Shown piece by piece: positions 29,715 to 56,083 of a stretch of DNA of 64,000 nucleotides. Source of the DNA: an uncultured Spirochaetales bacterium (GTDB lineage Bacteria > Spirochaetota > Spirochaetia > Sphaerochaetales > Sphaerochaetaceae); NCBI GenBank assembly GCA_949283305.1, contig CASDRU010000016.1:10155-74154 (forward strand), given 5' to 3'. Position 1 is the first letter of the stretch. Each line of letters starts with the position of its first letter. Below the pieces are notes generated by a model that worked only from the letters and a program-made list of their open reading frames with translations, was not told where the DNA came from and made no database searches. Position numbers and translations under genes: made by a program.

Positions 29715-31832
29715 ATGAAAAAAATCTTATGCATTCTTTTATCATTATCGGTACTTCTCCTTTTTTCCTGTAACCAGGAAGGAGAAAAGACAGCCACGAT
29801 GAGGATAATTCTTGAGGATGTGAAGACCAGCCGTCTCATAGCACCTGAAAATTATCCTCTTGAAATCGACACCTATTACATAACGGGTCAGGGTCCTGAC
29901 GGAAAGCGCTTTGACATCCATACAGGAAAGACAAGCGCGACGATTGAGAATGTCGTGATCGGAGAATGGACTATCAAGGTCCAGGGCCTGAATGAGTATG
30001 ACAATGTGATAGTCGAGGGAAGCAAGAGCTTTACTTTAAGCAACAGCAACAATTCTGTCACCATCACGCTTGACACGCTATATGGTGAAGGAGATCTGAG
30101 TGTCAAGCTCAAATGGAAGGACTCAACTGTCGAGAATCCAAGGCTTGAGGTCAACCTCACAAGGCAGAGTGGAGAAAAAGAGACACTGAATGCAGAGATT
30201 TCAGGGAACACAGCATCCATATATAAGGAAAATCTTGCAAGCGGATCATACATTTTCCAGGCCCAGCTCTTTGATTCAGATACTCTGATTTCAGGACTGA
30301 CTGAAGCAGTCAGGATAGTTGACAGCCAGATAAGTTCTGCTGAGCTCGATTTCGTGCAGACAGATTTCATACTCACACCGGGATCAATCAGCCTGATTGA
30401 CAAGTCAGGCATTCCTGTAAGATGCAATATCAGCGGCATTGACGGTGATCTGAAGGCCGGGCCTCACACAGTCACACTTGTTCCTGAGCGCGATGCGGAT
30501 CTGGAGGATCTTACAGTAAACTGGTATATCGATGGCAACCTTGCAGGAAGCGGAAGAGAATGCGAACTTACATTTGACACAGGAGTGCACCGTCTTGATG
30601 CTGTTGCATACACATCCAAACTGGGCTCATATGGCTCGACAGGACTCAGTGTCACAGTCCTGGATGACACTGATTTCGGAATTCCTGGAAATGCAAGAGT
30701 AATTGACAGCACAGCAGGACTCGATATAGGGCGGAACAATTATTTTTCCTTCCTTCCGGACGGAAGGCTGATGGCATTCAGCAGCGATGGAAATACTGCT
30801 CAGGTATTCAAGGTCTCTGCAAGCGAATTCACTCTTGAAAAAGAATATACAGGACTTGAGTTCCAGAAAGGATATGTCGCATCTGCACTTGCAGTGGAAG
30901 ATGATGAATCAGGAATGTTCAATATGCTTATATGCACTGATGATGACATAAACACATATCACTACTACATGAATCCAGAGACCCTTGAGCTCAATTATGT
31001 TAACTCATCCGGAGATACCTACTCATCAGATATGTGGTTTGGAAACTGCAAAATAACTAAGGTCCTGCCGGATATTGCATATGACACGGTTTATGATGAG
31101 TTCCTGTTTGTCGGAATAGATAATCCTCTTACAGAGGAGGATTATGAACGCCCTGCGATGTCTGGAAAAGTAGGAGCTATGATTGGAAGAAGGCCTGTTG
31201 ACGGTATAAATGCACACGAAGACTTTGCACTTCTTGATGCATATCCGGTACGCGATTTTGACAAGGATGCCACATTTGACAACCGTCCATCCTCCCCTCT
31301 TCTTGACACTGCGGCATTCGCAATCAGCCCAAACAGCGAGCAGTATGCGATAATAGACAGGAGCCAGGGAAGATTTGTCACATTGAACGAGATGACATTC
31401 GATCACACAGATTATTACGGAAACTTCCGCTATCATGGAGATTCATTTGCAGATCCGGATAAATATATCGGCGCAAATGACATGATATACAAGACAAATG
31501 ATATTGCGGTGATTGCCGGAAGGGGCTTCATAGCAACCGTTAAGACATATAAGGACAAGGGATCCACTGATGCTTTCTATAAGGAAGTGAGCGGTGCAGA
31601 TTTCTCAAGTCTTGCAATGAACCCGGTTACAAAGCACATATACGCTCTTGATGAAAGCGATGATGCACTTTATGTCTACACCGTATCTTCTAACGGGGAC
31701 ATCCAGGAAAGTGCTGTTATTGACACAGTCTCAAGCTATAGTGACATGGAGGTATCTCCAGATGGAAAGAGCCTTATTCTCTATAATTCCACAGGAGCTT
31801 CTGTCAAGATGATGCTTATAAATGTTAATTGA
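29715..31832 (+). CDS. large surface lipoprotein, Ig-like N-terminal modules plus beta-propeller-like C-terminus (tentative)
   Basis: Lipobox LLFSC. 705 aa. The C-terminal segment YALDESDDALYVYTV...SPDGKSLILYN resembles lactonase-type propeller blades. Confidence 0.65.
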   Translation: MKKILCILLSLSVLLLFSCNQEGEKTATMRIILEDVKTSRLIAPENYPLEIDTYYITGQGPDGKRFDIHTGKTSATIENVVIGEWTIKVQGLNEYDNVIVEGSKSFTLSNSNNSVTITLDTLYGEGDLSVKLKWKDSTVENPRLEVNLTRQSGEKETLNAEISGNTASIYKENLASGSYIFQAQLFDSDTLISGLTEAVRIVDSQISSAELDFVQTDFILTPGSISLIDKSGIPVRCNISGIDGDLKAGPHTVTLVPERDADLEDLTVNWYIDGNLAGSGRECELTFDTGVHRLDAVAYTSKLGSYGSTGLSVTVLDDTDFGIPGNARVIDSTAGLDIGRNNYFSFLPDGRLMAFSSDGNTAQVFKVSASEFTLEKEYTGLEFQKGYVASALAVEDDESGMFNMLICTDDDINTYHYYMNPETLELNYVNSSGDTYSSDMWFGNCKITKVLPDIAYDTVYDEFLFVGIDNPLTEEDYERPAMSGKVGAMIGRRPVDGINAHEDFALLDAYPVRDFDKDATFDNRPSSPLLDTAAFAISPNSEQYAIIDRSQGRFVTLNEMTFDHTDYYGNFRYHGDSFADPDKYIGANDMIYKTNDIAVIAGRGFIATVKTYKDKGSTDAFYKEVSGADFSSLAMNPVTKHIYALDESDDALYVYTVSSNGDIQESAVIDTVSSYSDMEVSPDGKSLILYNSTGASVKMMLINVN

Positions 31833-31836
31833 TTGC

Positions 31837-31863
31837 AAGGGCAGGAAATCCTGCCCTTTCTTC
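31837..31863 (+). terminator. intrinsic terminator after the lipoprotein gene
   Basis: AAGGGCAGG-aaat-CCTGCCCTT followed by TCTTC. Confidence 0.7.
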
Positions 31864-31893
31864 AAAACAGAGAAGCTGCCTGATAAAACAAGG
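31862..31893. repeat. displaced copy of the feoB 3' end (direct repeat, left)
   Basis: tcaaaacagagaagctgcctgataaaacaagg matches 32571-32604 with 1 substitution and a 2-nt indel. Confidence 0.8.
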
Positions 31894-31901
31894 TTCATAA
31901 A

Positions 31902-32200
31902 TTGATTAATACTAAAAAGTTTAGTGCTATAAACGTGAAGTATGCTGTGATGATACCTAAGCGATTTGACACTCTTATATTGCAAATGCCCAAGAATGCC
32001 CAGATTGTTTTAAAAAATCTGATTAAGGATATTTCAGAGAATGGACCTGTACAGCCAAAGTATCACACTACAGCAGGATTGGAAAAATCACTTATCATTG
32101 CCACCTTGCATACAGATGGGTAGCATGCTGGTGCTGCGAAGATGGGAAATTTATTGTGGAGGTTGATTATGTTGGTAGCCGTAAGAAAGCCCCCTATTGA
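31902..32200 (+). pseudogene. RelE/ParE-superfamily-like toxin (HigB-like position), frameshifted
   Basis: The N-terminal half is in frame 0 (...ENGPVQPK). The C-terminal half is in the other frame (VSHYSRIGKITYHCHLAYRWVACWCCEDGKFIVEVDYVGSRKKAPY*). One extra A at CCAAAG (32055-32060) would fuse them. Confidence 0.6.
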
Positions 32201-32528
32201 ATTTAATGTTACAGGAAATATTCCAGAAAGCCTCCTTTCTGGACTTATTAAGGAATACGGACCTGATAACGTAAGAGTTGAAAACACAGATTGCGTCAAT
32301 GCAATGGAAATGGAATGGTTTAAGGAACTTGAAATGGAGGACACTCCGGCAAAAAACATGAGGTTCTACAGGAAGCTTTCAGGCATGACACAGGCTGTAC
32401 TTGCAGAAAGAATCGGGGCTTCAAAGCAGTTTGTTTCTGATATGGAAAACGGGCGGAAATCCATAAGCAAGGCAACTGCAAAGAAACTTGCTAAAATTTT
32501 CGATGTTTCTGTTTCAAGATTCATCTGA
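32169..32528 (+). CDS. HTH (XRE-family) antitoxin, HigA-like position
   Basis: C-terminal HTH segment MRFYRKLSGMTQAVLAERIGASKQFVSDMENGRKSIS. Start taken as MLVAVRKPPIEF; the alternative ATG is at 32142. Confidence 0.75.
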   Translation: MLVAVRKPPIEFNVTGNIPESLLSGLIKEYGPDNVRVENTDCVNAMEMEWFKELEMEDTPAKNMRFYRKLSGMTQAVLAERIGASKQFVSDMENGRKSISKATAKKLAKIFDVSVSRFI

Positions 32529-32558
32529 AAACCCCTCACGCTCAGATTATGTGAGGGG
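32527..32558 (-). terminator. hairpin serving as the feoB terminator (cassette-borne)
   Basis: CCCCTCAC-N11-GTGAGGGG, with TTTTC following on the minus strand. Confidence 0.55.
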
Positions 32559-32570
32559 CAATCGTCTTAC

Positions 32571-32604
32571 TCAAAACAGAGAAGCTACCTGATAGAAAAC
32601 AAGG
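32571..32604. repeat. feoB 3' end (direct repeat, right, functional copy)
   Basis: Pairs with 31862-31893. Confidence 0.8.
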
Positions 32605-34919
32605 GAGACAAGATATGCAAGAGCAAGCTGAGCAAAGACTACGAAAAGCATCCATTTTGCTCCAAGCTCCCTCTTTACAGCAGTGACTGCTGCCACACAT
32701 GGGGTATAAAGCAGGCAGAAAAGAAGGAAAGAGAAAGCCTCGGTTGCTCCCATCTCCATTTTAAGCGCTTCAACAGATCCGTAAAGTATGCTGAGCGTGG
32801 ATACGACACTCTCTTTTGCCATGAATCCGGAAACAAGGCTTGTGACTGTCTTCCATGAAGCAAAGCCAAGTGGGATGAAAAGCGGAGCGATTGCTCCTGC
32901 GATTATAGACAGTATGCTTTTTTCGCTTCCCGGGGCGAAATTGAGGGTGAAATCGAAACTCTGGAGAGCCCATATTATTATTGTGGCGACAAAAATGACA
33001 GTAAATGCACGCTCAATGAAATCCTTGCTCTTCTCCCATAGCAGTCTTGCGACATTCTTTGCACCCGGCATTCTGTAGTTCGGAAGTTCCATGACGAAAG
33101 GAACGGCTTCTCCCTTGAACAGCACCTTCTTGAAAAGGAGGGCAACAAGTATCCCCATCACTATTCCAATAAGATAGAGTGCTATCATGACAAGAGCATG
33201 TGCGCGGGTAAAGAAGGCTGCTGTGAAGAATGCATAAATCGGCAGCTTTGCAGAGCAGCTCATGAACGGCGTCAAGAGTATTGTCATCTTTCTGTCTCTT
33301 TCAGAGGGGAGAGTACGGGATGCCATGACTGCTGGAACAGAGCATCCGAAACCTATTAAAAGAGGCACTATGCTACGCCCAGAAAGTCCAAGCTTTCTAA
33401 GCAGTTTGTCCATGACAAAAGCAATACGGGCCATATATCCGCTGTCCTCAAGAAGTGAAAGGAAGAAGAAAAGAGTCACGATTATTGGAAGGAATGATAG
33501 CACGCTGCCTACCCCGTTGAATATTCCGTCAATGATCAGACTATAAAACACCTCATTGATTTCAAGAGAAAGCAAAAGGGATGAAACGCTGTCAGTTGCA
33601 AGTCCTATCAGATAATCGAGGGCTGAAGAAAGGGCGGCTCCCACGACATTGAATGTGAGGAAGAACACAAGTCCCATTATGATGATGAATGCAGGAATTG
33701 CAGTGAATTTTCCTGTAAGAATCCTGTCAGCCATCTGACTTCTGATTCTCTCCTTTGACACAGCTGGTTTCTTCACAGTAAGACGGGAAACCCTGTTTAT
33801 GAAAGAAAATCTCATGTCCGCAATAGCGGCAGAGCGGTCAAGCCCTCTTTCCCTCTCCATCTGCATCACTATGTGCGAAAGCATCTCCTTCTCATTCTCA
33901 TCAAGATCCAGGGCCTCAAGGATAATCTCATCACCTTCGACAAGTTTTGAGGATGCAAAACGGAGAGGAATCCCTGCTCGCTCCGCATGATCCTCGATAA
34001 GATGCATCACCGAGTGAAGGCATCTGTGTACCGTTCCGTTATACTCCAGCGGTGAGCATATATCCTGCCTCAACGGCTTTTCCTGATAGCGGGCAACATG
34101 CATCAGGTGCTCTACAAGCTCCCTTATCCCCTCTTTCTTTGAGGCAGAAATCGGGACAACAGGAACCCCCAGAAGCTCCTCAAGCAGGTTGATGTTTATC
34201 GTTCCTCCGTTTGTACGCACCTCATCCATCATATTCAGTGCAACTACCATGGGTTTATCAAGCTCGATAAGCTGCATGGTAAGATACAGGTTTCTTTCTA
34301 TATTTGTCGCATCGACTATGTTTATAATTCCGTTCACATCCTCTTCAAGAACAAAGTTCCTGGTGACAATCTCTTCCTGTGTGTACGGGCTCATAGAGTA
34401 TATGCCGGGCAGATCAGTAACTGTAGCAGATGTGCCCTTTATGACACCATCCTTTCTGTCAACGGTGACTCCGGGAAAGTTTCCCACATGCTGGTTTGCT
34501 CCTGTGAGCTGATTGAAAAGCGTTGTCTTTCCGCAGTTCTGATTCCCGACAAGCGCAAAGGAGAGTCTGACATCATCAGCAAGAGGATGCTCATTCTTCT
34601 TGTCGTGGAATTTGCCTTCCTCTCCAAGTCCCGGATGAAGATGCCTCTCAAATTCCTCAGCATTTAGCTCCAGATCTTCTTCCTCTTTCTCTTCGGCCTT
34701 TTCTATCTCAATTTTTGCGGCATCATTGATTCTCAACGTGAGCTCATAGCCGCTTATCCTTATTTCAACAGGATCCCCCATTGGCGCATATTTTTCAACT
34801 CTTATATATGCCCCGGGAATAAGACCCATATCCAGAAAATGCTGACGAATCTCACCCTCTCCACCCACAGAGATGATCTTCGCGCTTTCTCCGGCCTTCA
34901 GATCCTTTATGCTTAACAT
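32571..34919 (-). CDS. feoB: ferrous iron transporter, FeoA-FeoB fusion
   Basis: N-terminal ~75 aa FeoA-like SH3 domain (LSIKDLKAGESAKII...), then the G-domain motif GNQNCGKTTLFNQLTG and a polytopic membrane domain. Confidence 0.92.
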   Translation of the reverse strand: MLSIKDLKAGESAKIISVGGEGEIRQHFLDMGLIPGAYIRVEKYAPMGDPVEIRISGYELTLRINDAAKIEIEKAEEKEEEDLELNAEEFERHLHPGLGEEGKFHDKKNEHPLADDVRLSFALVGNQNCGKTTLFNQLTGANQHVGNFPGVTVDRKDGVIKGTSATVTDLPGIYSMSPYTQEEIVTRNFVLEEDVNGIINIVDATNIERNLYLTMQLIELDKPMVVALNMMDEVRTNGGTININLLEELLGVPVVPISASKKEGIRELVEHLMHVARYQEKPLRQDICSPLEYNGTVHRCLHSVMHLIEDHAERAGIPLRFASSKLVEGDEIILEALDLDENEKEMLSHIVMQMERERGLDRSAAIADMRFSFINRVSRLTVKKPAVSKERIRSQMADRILTGKFTAIPAFIIIMGLVFFLTFNVVGAALSSALDYLIGLATDSVSSLLLSLEINEVFYSLIIDGIFNGVGSVLSFLPIIVTLFFFLSLLEDSGYMARIAFVMDKLLRKLGLSGRSIVPLLIGFGCSVPAVMASRTLPSERDRKMTILLTPFMSCSAKLPIYAFFTAAFFTRAHALVMIALYLIGIVMGILVALLFKKVLFKGEAVPFVMELPNYRMPGAKNVARLLWEKSKDFIERAFTVIFVATIIIWALQSFDFTLNFAPGSEKSILSIIAGAIAPLFIPLGFASWKTVTSLVSGFMAKESVVSTLSILYGSVEALKMEMGATEAFSFLLFCLLYTPCVAAVTAVKRELGAKWMLFVVFAQLALAYLVSLVFYQVASLF

Positions 34920-53820: not shown

Positions 53821-53972
53821 AACACTCCACATTAAAGATGACGTTTGATACAGAAACGGCAAAAGATGAAACAAGAAGAAAATACTCTTCCCCATTTAAT
53901 TCTACATCAAAAAGAAGGCTATGCTAATCTCTATTTTTTATGTCTGATACAAATGTCTTTAAACTCTTCATT

Positions 53973-54058
53973 AAAAAGGAGCGGCTCCTTGGATTACCGC
54001 TCCTCGCTTTATAAGAAAAGGTTTTGCATCACCTTTTGCATTTGCTGATGTGTTTGAA
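53973..54058. repeat. tRNA-flank repeat unit, copy A (hairpin + spacer, tRNA part almost gone)
   Basis: Hairpin GGAGCGG-N12-CCGCTCC at 53978-54003. The spacer is about 85% like copy C. Only tttgaac remains of the tRNA end. Confidence 0.75.
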
Positions 54059-54329: not shown

Positions 54330-54584
54330 TCAGTAAATGTTCTTGCGATGCCCAATCTTAAGAACAGAGATTATGATTCTCGATTCCTGGATTTCACAGA
54401 TTACCCTGTAATCCCCAACACGATACCGCCATAAACCTCGCATATTCTCGACAAGAGCTTTACCTCTGCTTCTGGGATTCTCAAGCCGTCCGACTTCATC
54501 CATGTAATCAAGAATCCTCTTCTGAATGGTCTTATCGAGCTTTTCGAGCTGCTTTCTCGCCGTTTCGGTGTATTGGATTCTCAT
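54330..54584 (-). CDS. relE: RelE/ParE-family toxin
   Basis: 84 aa with ...LWRYRVGDYRVICEIQESRIIISVLKIGHRKNIY. 4-nt overlap with the antitoxin gene. Confidence 0.88.
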   Translation of the reverse strand: MRIQYTETARKQLEKLDKTIQKRILDYMDEVGRLENPRSRGKALVENMRGLWRYRVGDYRVICEIQESRIIISVLKIGHRKNIY

Positions 54585-54814
54585 AGACCGAGCTCTTTCC
54601 TGATTTCATCGGATGAATAGGTCTTTTCCTTTCCTGCTCTGACTCTTTCACTTATGTCTACAGCATCATAGATATCTTCTATCTCGGAGAGGTAATCCTC
54701 AAGAAGGACATTGTAATAGAAACCAGAGCTACGCCTTGTTCTCTTGGCAAGATTGTCGACACGCTCTTTCAATTCTGGTGTAGTCCGAAATGTTACAGTT
54801 GATGTCAATGCCAT
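54581..54814 (-). CDS. ribbon-helix-helix (CopG/RelB-type) antitoxin
   Basis: MALTSTVTFRTTPELKERVDNLAKR... RHH N-terminus. Start at 54814 with GAGAGGAG upstream. Confidence 0.8.
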   Translation of the reverse strand: MALTSTVTFRTTPELKERVDNLAKRTRRSSGFYYNVLLEDYLSEIEDIYDAVDISERVRAGKEKTYSSDEIRKELGL

Positions 54815-54835
54815 ATCATTCTCCTCTCTATTTAG

Positions 54836-54864
54836 AATGTAATACATAGTTTGCATTGTGTCAA
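54836..54864 (-). promoter_or_regulatory. candidate promoter of the RHH/RelE operon
   Basis: On the minus strand TTGACA-17 nt-TACATT, flanked by imperfect inverted repeats AGAATACAT / ATGTATT..CT. Confidence 0.5.
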
Positions 54865-54895
54865 AATGTATTCTAGATTTGATCCGAAGGCAAAG

Positions 54896-55006
54896 AAAAA
54901 TAAATAAGGAGCGGCTCCTTGGATTACCGCTCCTCGCTTTGTATCATCTTTTGTGTTTGCTGATGGAGCCTGCTGGATTTGAACCGGCGACCCAAGGATT
55001 ATGAGT
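54896..55006. repeat. tRNA-flank repeat unit, copy B (hairpin + shortened spacer + tRNA 3' half)
   Basis: Hairpin at 54908-54933 is identical to copies A and C. Confidence 0.85.
54964..55006 (-). pseudogene. tRNA-Met 3' half fragment (discriminator to 5' edge of anticodon loop)
   Basis: 41/43 nt identical to 56011-56053. The two differences lie in the acceptor stem. Confidence 0.85.
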
Positions 55007-55207
55007 GCATCCTTCTGAGTGTCAGATACAAGTAGTTAGCGATATTTCTTGATATAAGATAAGTAATTAAATGATATGTGTAAATAAGAGTGCTCAGATA
55101 TGCTTCTTACTTATCTTCCTGTAGTAATTCTGCAAGAACTTCTGCCTGGAAAGGAAGAAGACTTTCTCCGACTTGGTTGGTCTATCATTATCCCATCTGA
55201 CCTTGGA

Positions 55208-55771
55208 CTATTCGAGAGTGCAGATATAATCAGCAACCTGTAAAAGCTTGTAGTCCTTCTGATAGGCTGTACGGAAATCCATTCTGTTTCCGAATATCTT
55301 CCCAAACGTATTCCTGAGGATTTTGCTTATAGCGGCTTGTCTGCAATCATAATATATGGTGATTCTTTCGAAGCTCTGAAAATAATCAAGTTTGTCCTCA
55401 ATGAAGCTTTTTATCTGATGTTCAAATGCATCTTCCAGTTGTTTGCTATCTTGATAGAACGATTTTTTTGCTGTGAATGTAGTGTAAGAAATTGGAAGCT
55501 GTTCTGCAAATCTTGCAAATACACGGAATATGCTTTTCCTTTCTTCACGTAGCATATTCTCAAATGGTTTATCCTGCCTTATCAATGGAATTGTATGTAT
55601 AAATGCTACCTTGCAATTCATTGATAGTAATTTCGCATCAAGGAAAGCAATCTCAGAAGAGATATCATCATCCTGATCATGGAAAACCATAGCAAGGCAA
55701 TATTCAGGATTCTGTCTGTTGGAAAGGTTCAGATTACCACTTTCATCGATATGGATAGACAGAACAGACAA
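55208..55771 (-). CDS. DUF3800-family protein, possibly truncated by an in-frame TAG
   Basis: TTG start. The N-terminal LSIHIDESGN is typical of DUF3800, as is LQVADYIC near the end. The same frame stays open for 37 more codons after the TAG, down to 55094. Confidence 0.7.
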   Translation of the reverse strand: MSVLSIHIDESGNLNLSNRQNPEYCLAMVFHDQDDDISSEIAFLDAKLLSMNCKVAFIHTIPLIRQDKPFENMLREERKSIFRVFARFAEQLPISYTTFTAKKSFYQDSKQLEDAFEHQIKSFIEDKLDYFQSFERITIYYDCRQAAISKILRNTFGKIFGNRMDFRTAYQKDYKLLQVADYICTLE

Positions 55772-55929
55772 GACAAGCCCCTTACAAAGAAATTGCCAGA
55801 GGTCTACCTCTGGCTCTACGGCGGGGAACTCGCCCCTGTTCGGCTTGGTGTCCGACCTAACTATAATATAGCAGGAAACTTACTCTTTGGAAAGTTCTAT
55901 TACCTCTGGTTCCTGGAGAAAGTGAAGGA

Positions 55930-56053
55930 AAATAAATAAGGAGCGGCTCCTTGGATTACCGCTCCTCGTTTGCTAAGAAAAGGCTTTGTATCACCTTTTG
56001 TATCTTAAGATGGGCCCTGCTGGATTTGAACCGGCGACCCAAGGATTATGAGT
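55930..56053. repeat. tRNA-flank repeat unit, copy C (hairpin + spacer + 3' half of the intact tRNA)
   Basis: Hairpin at 55940-55965 followed on the minus strand by TTATTTATTTT. It functions as the tRNA terminator. Confidence 0.85.
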
Positions 56054-56083
56054 CCTTTGCTCTAACCGCTGAGCTAAGAGCCC
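56011..56083 (-). tRNA. tRNA with CAT anticodon (elongator Met, or Ile2 if lysidinylated); CCA not encoded
   Basis: A 73-nt cloverleaf folded by hand: acceptor GGGCUCU/AGGGCCC, D arm GCUC/GAGC, anticodon arm AAGGA-CUCAUAA-UCCUU, T arm GCCGG-UUCAAAU-CCAGC (one C-A mismatch). Confidence 0.85.

Follow-up and report, generated by a model that had tools for sequence, protein, structure and literature searches.

Insertion with long target duplication has been described before (Nobusato et al. 2000, Gene 259:99; Furuta, Abe & Kobayashi 2010, PMC2853133). In the cases reported in PMC2853133, duplications of more than 30 bp flank restriction-modification (R-M) genes, related genomes hold empty sites, and a start or stop codon often falls within the repeats. 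The mechanism was left without explanation there; the authors proposed that DNA breakage by the cargo takes part. Long target duplication was noted again in PMC3874152 and PMC3457768. Direct repeats of variable length, from 8 to 514 bp, also accompany the insertion sequences (ISs) IS1634 and IS1549, with no mechanistic model (Vilei 1999; Plikaytis 1998; reviewed in PMC2266710). Here, we describe a 677-nt toxin-antitoxin (TA) cassette at the 3′ end of feoB in an uncultured Spirochaetales bacterium of the family Sphaerochaetaceae (assembly GCA_949283305.1, hereafter G000). It lies within a stretch of 64,000 nt (contig CASDRU010000016.1, positions 10,155 to 74,154, forward strand) that we call the window and to which all positions given without a contig refer. 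The cassette stands between two copies of the end of feoB and is missing from a sister species. We interpret it as an insertion with long target duplication, non-site-specific, in which staggered junctions would have been followed by selection, and we place the probability of this reading at about 65%. The insertion site comprises the following features:

29715 to 31832, plus strand: lipoprotein gene, 705 aa, called as an open reading frame (ORF); left neighbor of the insertion site, convergent with feoB.
31837 to 31858, no strand assigned: hairpin with a 10-bp stem (inverted repeat, 100% complementary), shared terminator of the ancestral convergent pair.
31862 to 31893, minus strand: left target copy from repeat comparison, 32 nt (2 nt deleted); dead feoB 3′ end.
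31894 to 32570, plus strand: inserted cassette, 677 nt, with putative promoter/operator, toxin pseudogene, antitoxin gene, and hairpin; absent from the sister species (genome G091, records L028 and L030).
32571 to 32604, minus strand: right target copy from repeat comparison, the live end of feoB, stop codon included.
32571 to 34919, minus strand: feoB, a FeoA-FeoB fusion of 782 aa (TIGR00437, E = 9.5e-181; Pfam FeoA, FeoB_N, Gate, and FeoB_C).

A preliminary description of the window, made by a model from the sequence alone, had reported that the last 34 nt of feoB (32571 to 32604) recur as a 32-nt copy (31862 to 31893), and we confirmed both the coordinates and the differences. The two copies lie 709 nt apart, start to start, and the left one departs from the right by one substitution and a 2-nt deletion. 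Allowing up to three mismatches, a 24-nt core of the repeat matches twice in the window (0 matches expected from 100 shuffles). With up to four substitutions allowed, it has two matches in the whole 1.49-Mb genome, and the concern that it might be a widespread repeat unrelated to feoB was not borne out. A chance repeat or an assembly artifact was ruled out, as the repeat occurs nowhere else in the genome and eight independent assemblies contain the filled site. The hairpin beyond the lipoprotein gene (arms 31837 to 31846 and 31849 to 31858; RNA fold −17.8 kcal/mol, z = −4.0) ends 3 nt before the left copy.

Related genomes supply both states of the site. The lipoprotein matches, at 99% identity, a protein cluster from the chicken-gut spirochaete Candidatus Ornithospirochaeta avicola. 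The cassette is present in seven further assemblies of the species from ENA and Logan (L022 to L027 and L029), giving a filled site in 8/8 assemblies. It is missing from both records of a sister species (L028, which is GCA_019113245.1 or G091, and L030), in which the gap between the lipoprotein gene and feoB is 29 nt. The sister species is 93.5% identical over 1.03 Mb and 94 to 96% identical at the feoB locus. Alignment of the lipoprotein gene–feoB junction, the check that the preliminary description had proposed, showed that in L028 and L030 the segment occurs once, adjoining the hairpin; neither record, both lacking the TA pair, carried two copies. The layout put forward as ancestral (lipoprotein gene, hairpin, feoB end) is thus the one seen in the sister species, and the entry of a small cassette without a recombinase into the feoB end is borne out by sister genomes that lack the 677 nt. 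When the flanks in the window are aligned to G091, they overlap by 34 nt (C4:100094-100127), and two substitutions separate the right copy from the one at the empty site. The insertion occurred in the lineage of this species, after its split from the sister species. It left feoB intact, because the duplicated 34 nt span the feoB stop codon, and next to the former terminator hairpin a dead duplicate of the gene end remained.

The two copies also indicate where the repeat came from. Both read GAAGC in the filled species at a position where the empty species reads GAAGA, and in one filled assembly (L029) they are identical save for the 2-nt deletion. Because both carry the resident allele, the 34-nt repeat looks like duplicated target rather than DNA brought by the cassette, and the earlier suggestion of a replacement 3′ end delivered by the cassette is not supported. 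The left copy has the same sequence throughout the filled strains L022 to L027, 2-nt deletion included. Among the species-representative relatives in the genus, synteny is absent and the FeoB C-terminus is ~60% identical, a divergence too great for an empty site to be recognized; a metagenome scan with the lipoprotein gave no match. Within the cassette, we recognize the following features:

31903 to 31932, plus strand: putative promoter with palindromic operator, TTGATT ... TGCTATAAA, from alignment with the homologous cassette L033 (TTGACA-AGTACTAATAAAAATAGTACT-ATCAT).
31935 to 32200, plus strand: toxin gene of RelE/YafQ fold, a pseudogene in two reading frames; intact allele in L026.
32169 to 32528, plus strand: antitoxin gene, 119-aa HTH_3 protein of the XRE type with a helix-turn-helix (HTH) domain, intact (PF01381, E = 3.7e-14).
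32532 to 32558, no strand assigned: cassette-borne hairpin just downstream of the feoB stop codon, from RNA folding of both strands.

The preliminary description had placed exactly one TA pair between the copies. This stands insofar as there are two overlapping genes and no others; the toxin, however, is a pseudogene here through a 1-nt deletion. The toxin gene comes first, and the antitoxin gene, whose product also has weaker matches to HipB and HigA antitoxin models, overlaps its end by 32 nt. One A is missing near 32067 in this strain, L022, and L025; one A is missing in a later A-run in L023 and L027; and L024 has a 43-nt deletion. The toxin of L026 is intact at 88 aa (P0055). With three independent lesions among strains, the toxin decayed after insertion. 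The toxin of the family cassette in G091 is broken as well, by an in-frame TGA. The antitoxin gene, at up to 2.8% nucleotide diversity, shows 4 to 9 synonymous versus 0 to 1 nonsynonymous codon differences among strains, and by this measure it is kept under purifying selection. We also observed that the Logan assemblies L025, L026, and L027 break at the toxin/antitoxin overlap (~32197 to 32200), probably as a result of strain polymorphism in the toxin gene.

Neither the toxin pieces nor the intact toxin matched any model in Pfam, NCBIfam (E ≤ 1), or PADLOC (E ≤ 0.1). A profile of 19 toxin homologues gave a full-length match to HP0892, a Helicobacter toxin (E = 0.024). An AlphaFold model of the intact allele (predicted local distance difference test score, pLDDT, 81.6) retrieved YafQ, YoeB, HP0894, RelE, and HigB in Foldseek at probability 1.0, with template modeling (TM) scores of 0.62 to 0.68. 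The toxin family has the invariant motifs YHCHL and GSREKAPY, and tblastn at 53 loci found toxin and antitoxin genes side by side in 49. Homologues are located on Leptospira plasmids and one Leptospira phage, and a homologue on a Legionella plasmid carries the annotation RelE-type toxin. The cargo thus has the fold of the RelE/ParE superfamily, a gene pair that behaves as a unit, and an HTH antitoxin, and its toxin falls in no curated family. On this modeling, the cargo is a type II TA pair of the RelE superfamily, and for its toxin we predict ribosome-dependent cleavage of mRNA, not of DNA.

The insert fits closely around this transcription unit, beginning 9 nt before the −35 hexamer and ending 42 nt past the antitoxin stop codon. 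Its homology to the nearest cassette (L033, from a different genus, 79% nucleotide identity) begins at 31897, immediately ahead of the −35 hexamer, and runs through the antitoxin stop codon at 32528. Because a simple consensus promoter scan made no call at 31903 to 31932, we infer the promoter there from the alignment. Five cassettes of the G091 type likewise share common limits, with a TTGAAA hexamer and an AGTAAT...ATTACT palindrome at the start and the stop codon at the end. Beyond those limits they carry short, unrelated sequences (29 nt and 25 nt in the G091 cassette), as the window cassette carries its 42-nt tail. That tail holds the second hairpin, which lies 12 nt before the right repeat copy and is without counterpart in L033. 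It folds at −18.3 kcal/mol on the minus strand (z = −3.8), where UUUU follows, and at −15.2 kcal/mol on the plus strand, and it now probably terminates feoB.

Modules of one or two genes, often TA pairs, are moved by recombinases encoded elsewhere in the case of pdif modules of Acinetobacter plasmids and of integron cassettes; both are bounded by conserved recombination sites (pdif and attC), not by a duplicated target. No attC-like conserved end was found among the compared cassettes, and an integron cassette reading was dropped on that ground. Terminal inverted repeats were absent from six cassettes, the best inverted match being 5 to 9 nt and not at the termini. RNA-mediated (retro-copied) insertion was ruled out because the insert contains its promoter, with the −35 region and operator conserved in L033.

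The insertion at feoB has parallels elsewhere. The toxin family occurs in 60 of the 258 genomes of the order, often as fragments. At 30 loci, we compared 450 nt upstream with 450 nt downstream of the gene pair, using 208 cross-locus comparisons (maximum score 30) as the null. Five loci exceeded the null, with scores of 33 to 97: the window (34 nt), L021 (19 nt), L035 (51 nt), L053 (31 nt), and L054 (41 nt). The five repeats are all different sequences and lie 3 to 128 nt from the gene pair. A second batch of 20 more distant loci gave no flanking repeats, so that the overall count is 5/50. The search for the cassette at other places that had been suggested therefore yielded a family with different flanking duplications at different loci.

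One of these loci is the converse of the feoB site. L035 is the family cassette of G091, flanked by a 51-nt duplication, and at the corresponding position of G000 (C10:280871-280921) the site is empty and the 51 nt occur once. The two sister genomes thus have one family cassette each, ~70% identical and at different sites. The target of L035 is a promoter region, with hpt on one side and a dehydrogenase E1 gene on the other; the 41-nt repeat of L054 is also promoter-like, and the repeat of L021 spans the stop codon of an HTH gene. The preliminary description had seen a logic of gene 3′ ends served by one trans-acting mechanism. The first part is not supported, given that promoter regions were hit in other verified or likely cases (51 nt in G091, 41 nt in L054), and a dedicated recombinase is not indicated, given that there is no common attachment (att) core and there are no terminal inverted repeats. 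The cassettes accordingly differ from att-bounded integrative elements, as the five repeats are unrelated. They differ from ISs and miniature inverted-repeat transposable elements in lacking terminal inverted repeats and a short duplication of fixed length (34 nt at feoB, 19 to 129 nt overall). Judging from these sequences, the insertion process is general and not local to feoB.

We made two further observations at family loci. A 104-aa ORF just downstream of the flanked cassette L053 (L053:2268-2582, G246:C83) has a C-terminus, GYQTKINDALRSYV, that resembles DUF4415/BrnA-type antitoxins; relatives of L053 lack the whole 1.5-kb interval. At L004:1238-1452 (G020:C36), an array resembling clustered regularly interspaced short palindromic repeats (CRISPR), with the 30-nt repeat GTTTGCTCCACGAATGTGGAGATGTTTCTG and a period of 61 to 63 nt, abuts an antitoxin-gene homologue.

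A second event of the same kind, with other cargo, lies in the window itself:

54893 to 56053, minus strand: DUF3800 cassette event; copies 54893 to 55006 and 55925 to 56053 aligned, cassette 55007 to 55924 (918 nt).

The DUF3800 gene (PF12686, E = 1.7e-7) is flanked by a 114/129-nt duplication of the 3′ part of tRNA-Met and its trailer (tRNA-Met at 56011 to 56083), and the site is empty in G091, with one copy at C4:77662-77790. The duplication pattern that had been noted at the tRNA-Met locus is therefore real, with a DUF3800 cassette between the copies; the distance from feoB is ~23.4 kb, not 22 kb. The tRNA-Met trailer hairpin occurs three times (53969 to 54005, 54899 to 54935, and 55931 to 55967), and these hairpins bracket a RelE/antitoxin pair (54330 to 54856) and the DUF3800 cassette. 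The three trailer copies stop at different points, and the leftmost is without the tRNA part. These variable boundaries, along with the empty site in G091, would suit long target duplication better than decayed integrase islands.

Whole-genome comparison of G000 with 1.14 Mb of G091 revealed the following insertions with long flank overlap: the two TA cassettes (34 and 51 nt), the DUF3800 cassette (114/129 nt), and an IS1634-family element (233 nt). This last element (G091 C3:40806-42739, L093:806-2739) is 1934 nt long and encodes a 565-aa transposase (NF033559, E = 1e-96). Its ends, CTGTCTTTAGACTTTGAG, form terminal inverted repeats matching at 16/18 nt. The target duplication of 233 nt (229/233 identical) corresponds to an empty site in G000 (C6, ~149828-150062).

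The comparison turned up other differences between the two genomes, and the classical elements among them conform to expectation. An ISL3-like element in G000 (C6:8842-10194), whose transposase is frameshifted and whose target duplication measures 8 nt (AAAATAAA), is absent from G091. Single-gene insertions without target duplication (G000 C18:160872-162014 and C6:152350-153609; G091 C19:15522-16823 and C13:134258-135592 and 97208-98518) appear, by eye only, to be IscB-like (MVYVLNSDGSPLMPC...) and TnpB/IS605 OrfB-like. An island of ~5 kb in G091 (C4:140459-145391), absent from G000, is bounded by a diverged ~0.6-kb duplication of a small gene, and the small accessory genes on it include a YafQ/DinJ-like pair. 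A tandem repeat of ~100 nt in a PEVP/TATVEE-repeat gene (G000 C18:124667-124781) differs in copy number between the genomes. Note also that G000 has three tandem tyrosine-recombinase genes resembling a recombinase-in-trio arrangement (C2:2364-4834) and an integrase-family gene at the start of C20.

The 677-nt unit inserted at the convergent lipoprotein gene–feoB junction and duplicated 34 nt of its target. We propose that the two junctions were made at staggered target positions, 34 nt apart here and 19 to 129 nt apart at other sites. This could have happened through staggered breaks with fill-in, or through a nascent strand that switched to foreign DNA and rejoined the chromosome upstream of its point of departure. 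Selection would then have retained insertions that spare both neighboring genes and whose cargo, as an addiction module, is hard to lose. Toxin decay and antitoxin retention came afterward, as, probably, did reuse of the cassette hairpin by feoB. We take the process to be non-site-specific because there is no att core, there are no terminal inverted repeats, and there is no recombinase in cis. As the cargo is a predicted mRNA nuclease, an insertion process independent of the cargo is more likely.

Several points weigh against this proposal. The staggered-joint or template-switch step is an inference. Flanking repeats occur at only 5/50 family loci, and most family copies may have arrived otherwise or be too old to tell. 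Empty sites are verified for two TA events only, the relatives of L053 and L054 being too diverged or rearranged. With repeats of 34 to 51 nt, the choice between gain and precise loss by recombination of the repeats is decided by parsimony and one shared substitution. Last, tyrosine recombinase genes are present elsewhere in G000 and IS1634-type transposases are common in the order, and a trans-acting enzyme may still be involved.

If a tyrosine recombinase acted in trans, the cassette would resemble a cis-mobilizable element (CIME) or another integrase-less mobilizable unit that carried its own feoB end, and the 34-nt repeats would be attL and attR. Insertion at a gene or tRNA 3′ end between direct repeats is what integrases classically produce; G000 has six genes of the Phage_integrase family at other places (contigs C2, C6, and C20, whereas C16, the contig of the window, has none), and the family member L021 is ~0.5 kb from an integrase gene. 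No integrase gene lies between the repeats. We nevertheless find this account quite unlikely: The five family repeats have no common core and two of them are promoter regions, repeat length runs from 19 to 129 nt, and the three tRNA-Met trailer copies have different ends. Both copies at feoB carry the resident allele, and a traveling cassette is unlikely to bring the matching 34 nt, because the feoB C-terminus is unconserved even within the genus. An IS1634-family transposase in trans, or its staggered target cleavage capturing foreign DNA, would account for the length of the duplications, as 19 to 129 nt falls within the published 8 to 514 bp (PMC2266710). The sister genome has an element with a 233-nt duplication whose site is empty in G000, and the family occurs in 150 of the 258 genomes of the order versus 1 of 14 control genomes. 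The cassettes, however, have no terminal inverted repeats and nothing similar to the ends of the IS1634-like element. No such transposase was found in the G000 assembly (95.7% complete), and the family is present in 3/5 genomes with flanked cassettes, which equals the 58% background and shows no enrichment. We consider this idea very unlikely, and it stays a lead only. A broader version is that Sphaerochaeta-like spirochaetes have a dedicated insertion activity that places repeat-less, promoter-to-terminator addiction or defense cassettes into staggered cuts 20 to 230 nt apart; an IS1634-type transposase in trans or another host enzyme could provide it. This is a tentative thought that we hold to be unlikely. 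If it were true, long target duplication would be a real mobility pathway and not a by-product of illegitimate recombination.

Two further explanations concern the history of the cassette rather than an enzyme. In Campbell-type homologous recombination, a circular cassette with one 34-nt repeat, excised from a filled locus of another strain, would join the feoB end. The direct repeats would allow excision and re-entry at the same locus, the left copy is identical in all filled strains with its 2-nt deletion included, and antitoxin diversity of up to 2.8% among strains would fit recombination. Such a route explains spread within the species, not the origin of the first duplication, and we saw no presence/absence polymorphism within the species (8/8 filled, with 2/2 empty in the sister); we judge it less probable again than the two trans-acting enzymes. 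Decay of a larger prophage or island that entered at the feoB end, leaving the TA pair between att sites, has least in its favor and seems highly improbable. Addiction modules often outlive their carrier elements, and homologues reside on Leptospira plasmids and a Leptospira phage. Between the repeats, however, there is no remnant of other genes, and the insert fits tightly, with 9 nt ahead of the −35 hexamer and 42 nt behind the stop codon. The independent event in G091 fits equally tightly, and two precise trimmings to one transcription unit are improbable. We continue to favor insertion with long target duplication.

The finding matters in three respects. A signature of this kind around predicted mRNA-cleaving cargo and a DUF3800 gene points away from the cargo and toward a host or general process, together with selection for modules that are hard to lose. 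With reciprocal filled and empty sites in two sister genomes, several flanked TA copies, and an IS1634-type 233-nt duplication in the lineage, these spirochaetes offer a usable system. The locus also records a life history: A chromosomal TA pair arrived, its toxin was inactivated repeatedly, the antitoxin was retained, and feoB probably came to reuse the hairpin.

Set beside known systems, the TA pair resembles HigBA in having the toxin gene first, an overlapping XRE-type HTH antitoxin gene, and a palindromic operator in the putative promoter, and the predicted toxin fold is that of the HP0892/HP0894, YafQ-DinJ, and HigBA systems. Unlike the RelE, YafQ, YoeB, and HigB systems, its toxin is without a match to Pfam, NCBIfam, or PADLOC models. 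CIMEs and tandem islands at tRNA or gene 3′ ends share with it repeats that include a gene 3′ end, the absence of a recombinase in cis, and small cargo; their att cores are fixed for each integrase, whereas the repeats here differ by locus and some are promoters. IS1634 and IS1549 likewise make long target duplications of variable length, but they are autonomous, with a DDE transposase and terminal inverted repeats, and the cassette has neither.

The closest likeness is to the cases of Furuta et al. 2010. As in those, a relative without the insert has one copy of the target, the duplication exceeds 30 bp (34 nt), and the insert is shorter than 20 kb and free of mobile-element genes (677 nt). 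A compact selfish unit lies between the repeats with no transposase or integrase, repeat length varies, and the neighboring gene is spared where the repeat overlaps a start or stop codon, as it often does. R-M genes in the insert, which that study used as a screening rule, are absent here; the rule is not a property of the mechanism. Their cargo was mainly R-M systems, whereas here it is a RelE-fold mRNA-interferase pair or a DUF3800 gene, neither predicted to cut DNA. Moreover, the host is an uncultured spirochaete, and one cargo family shows the signature at several loci. The phenomenon is thus already described, and the feoB cassette is a clean new example of it with cargo predicted not to cut DNA.

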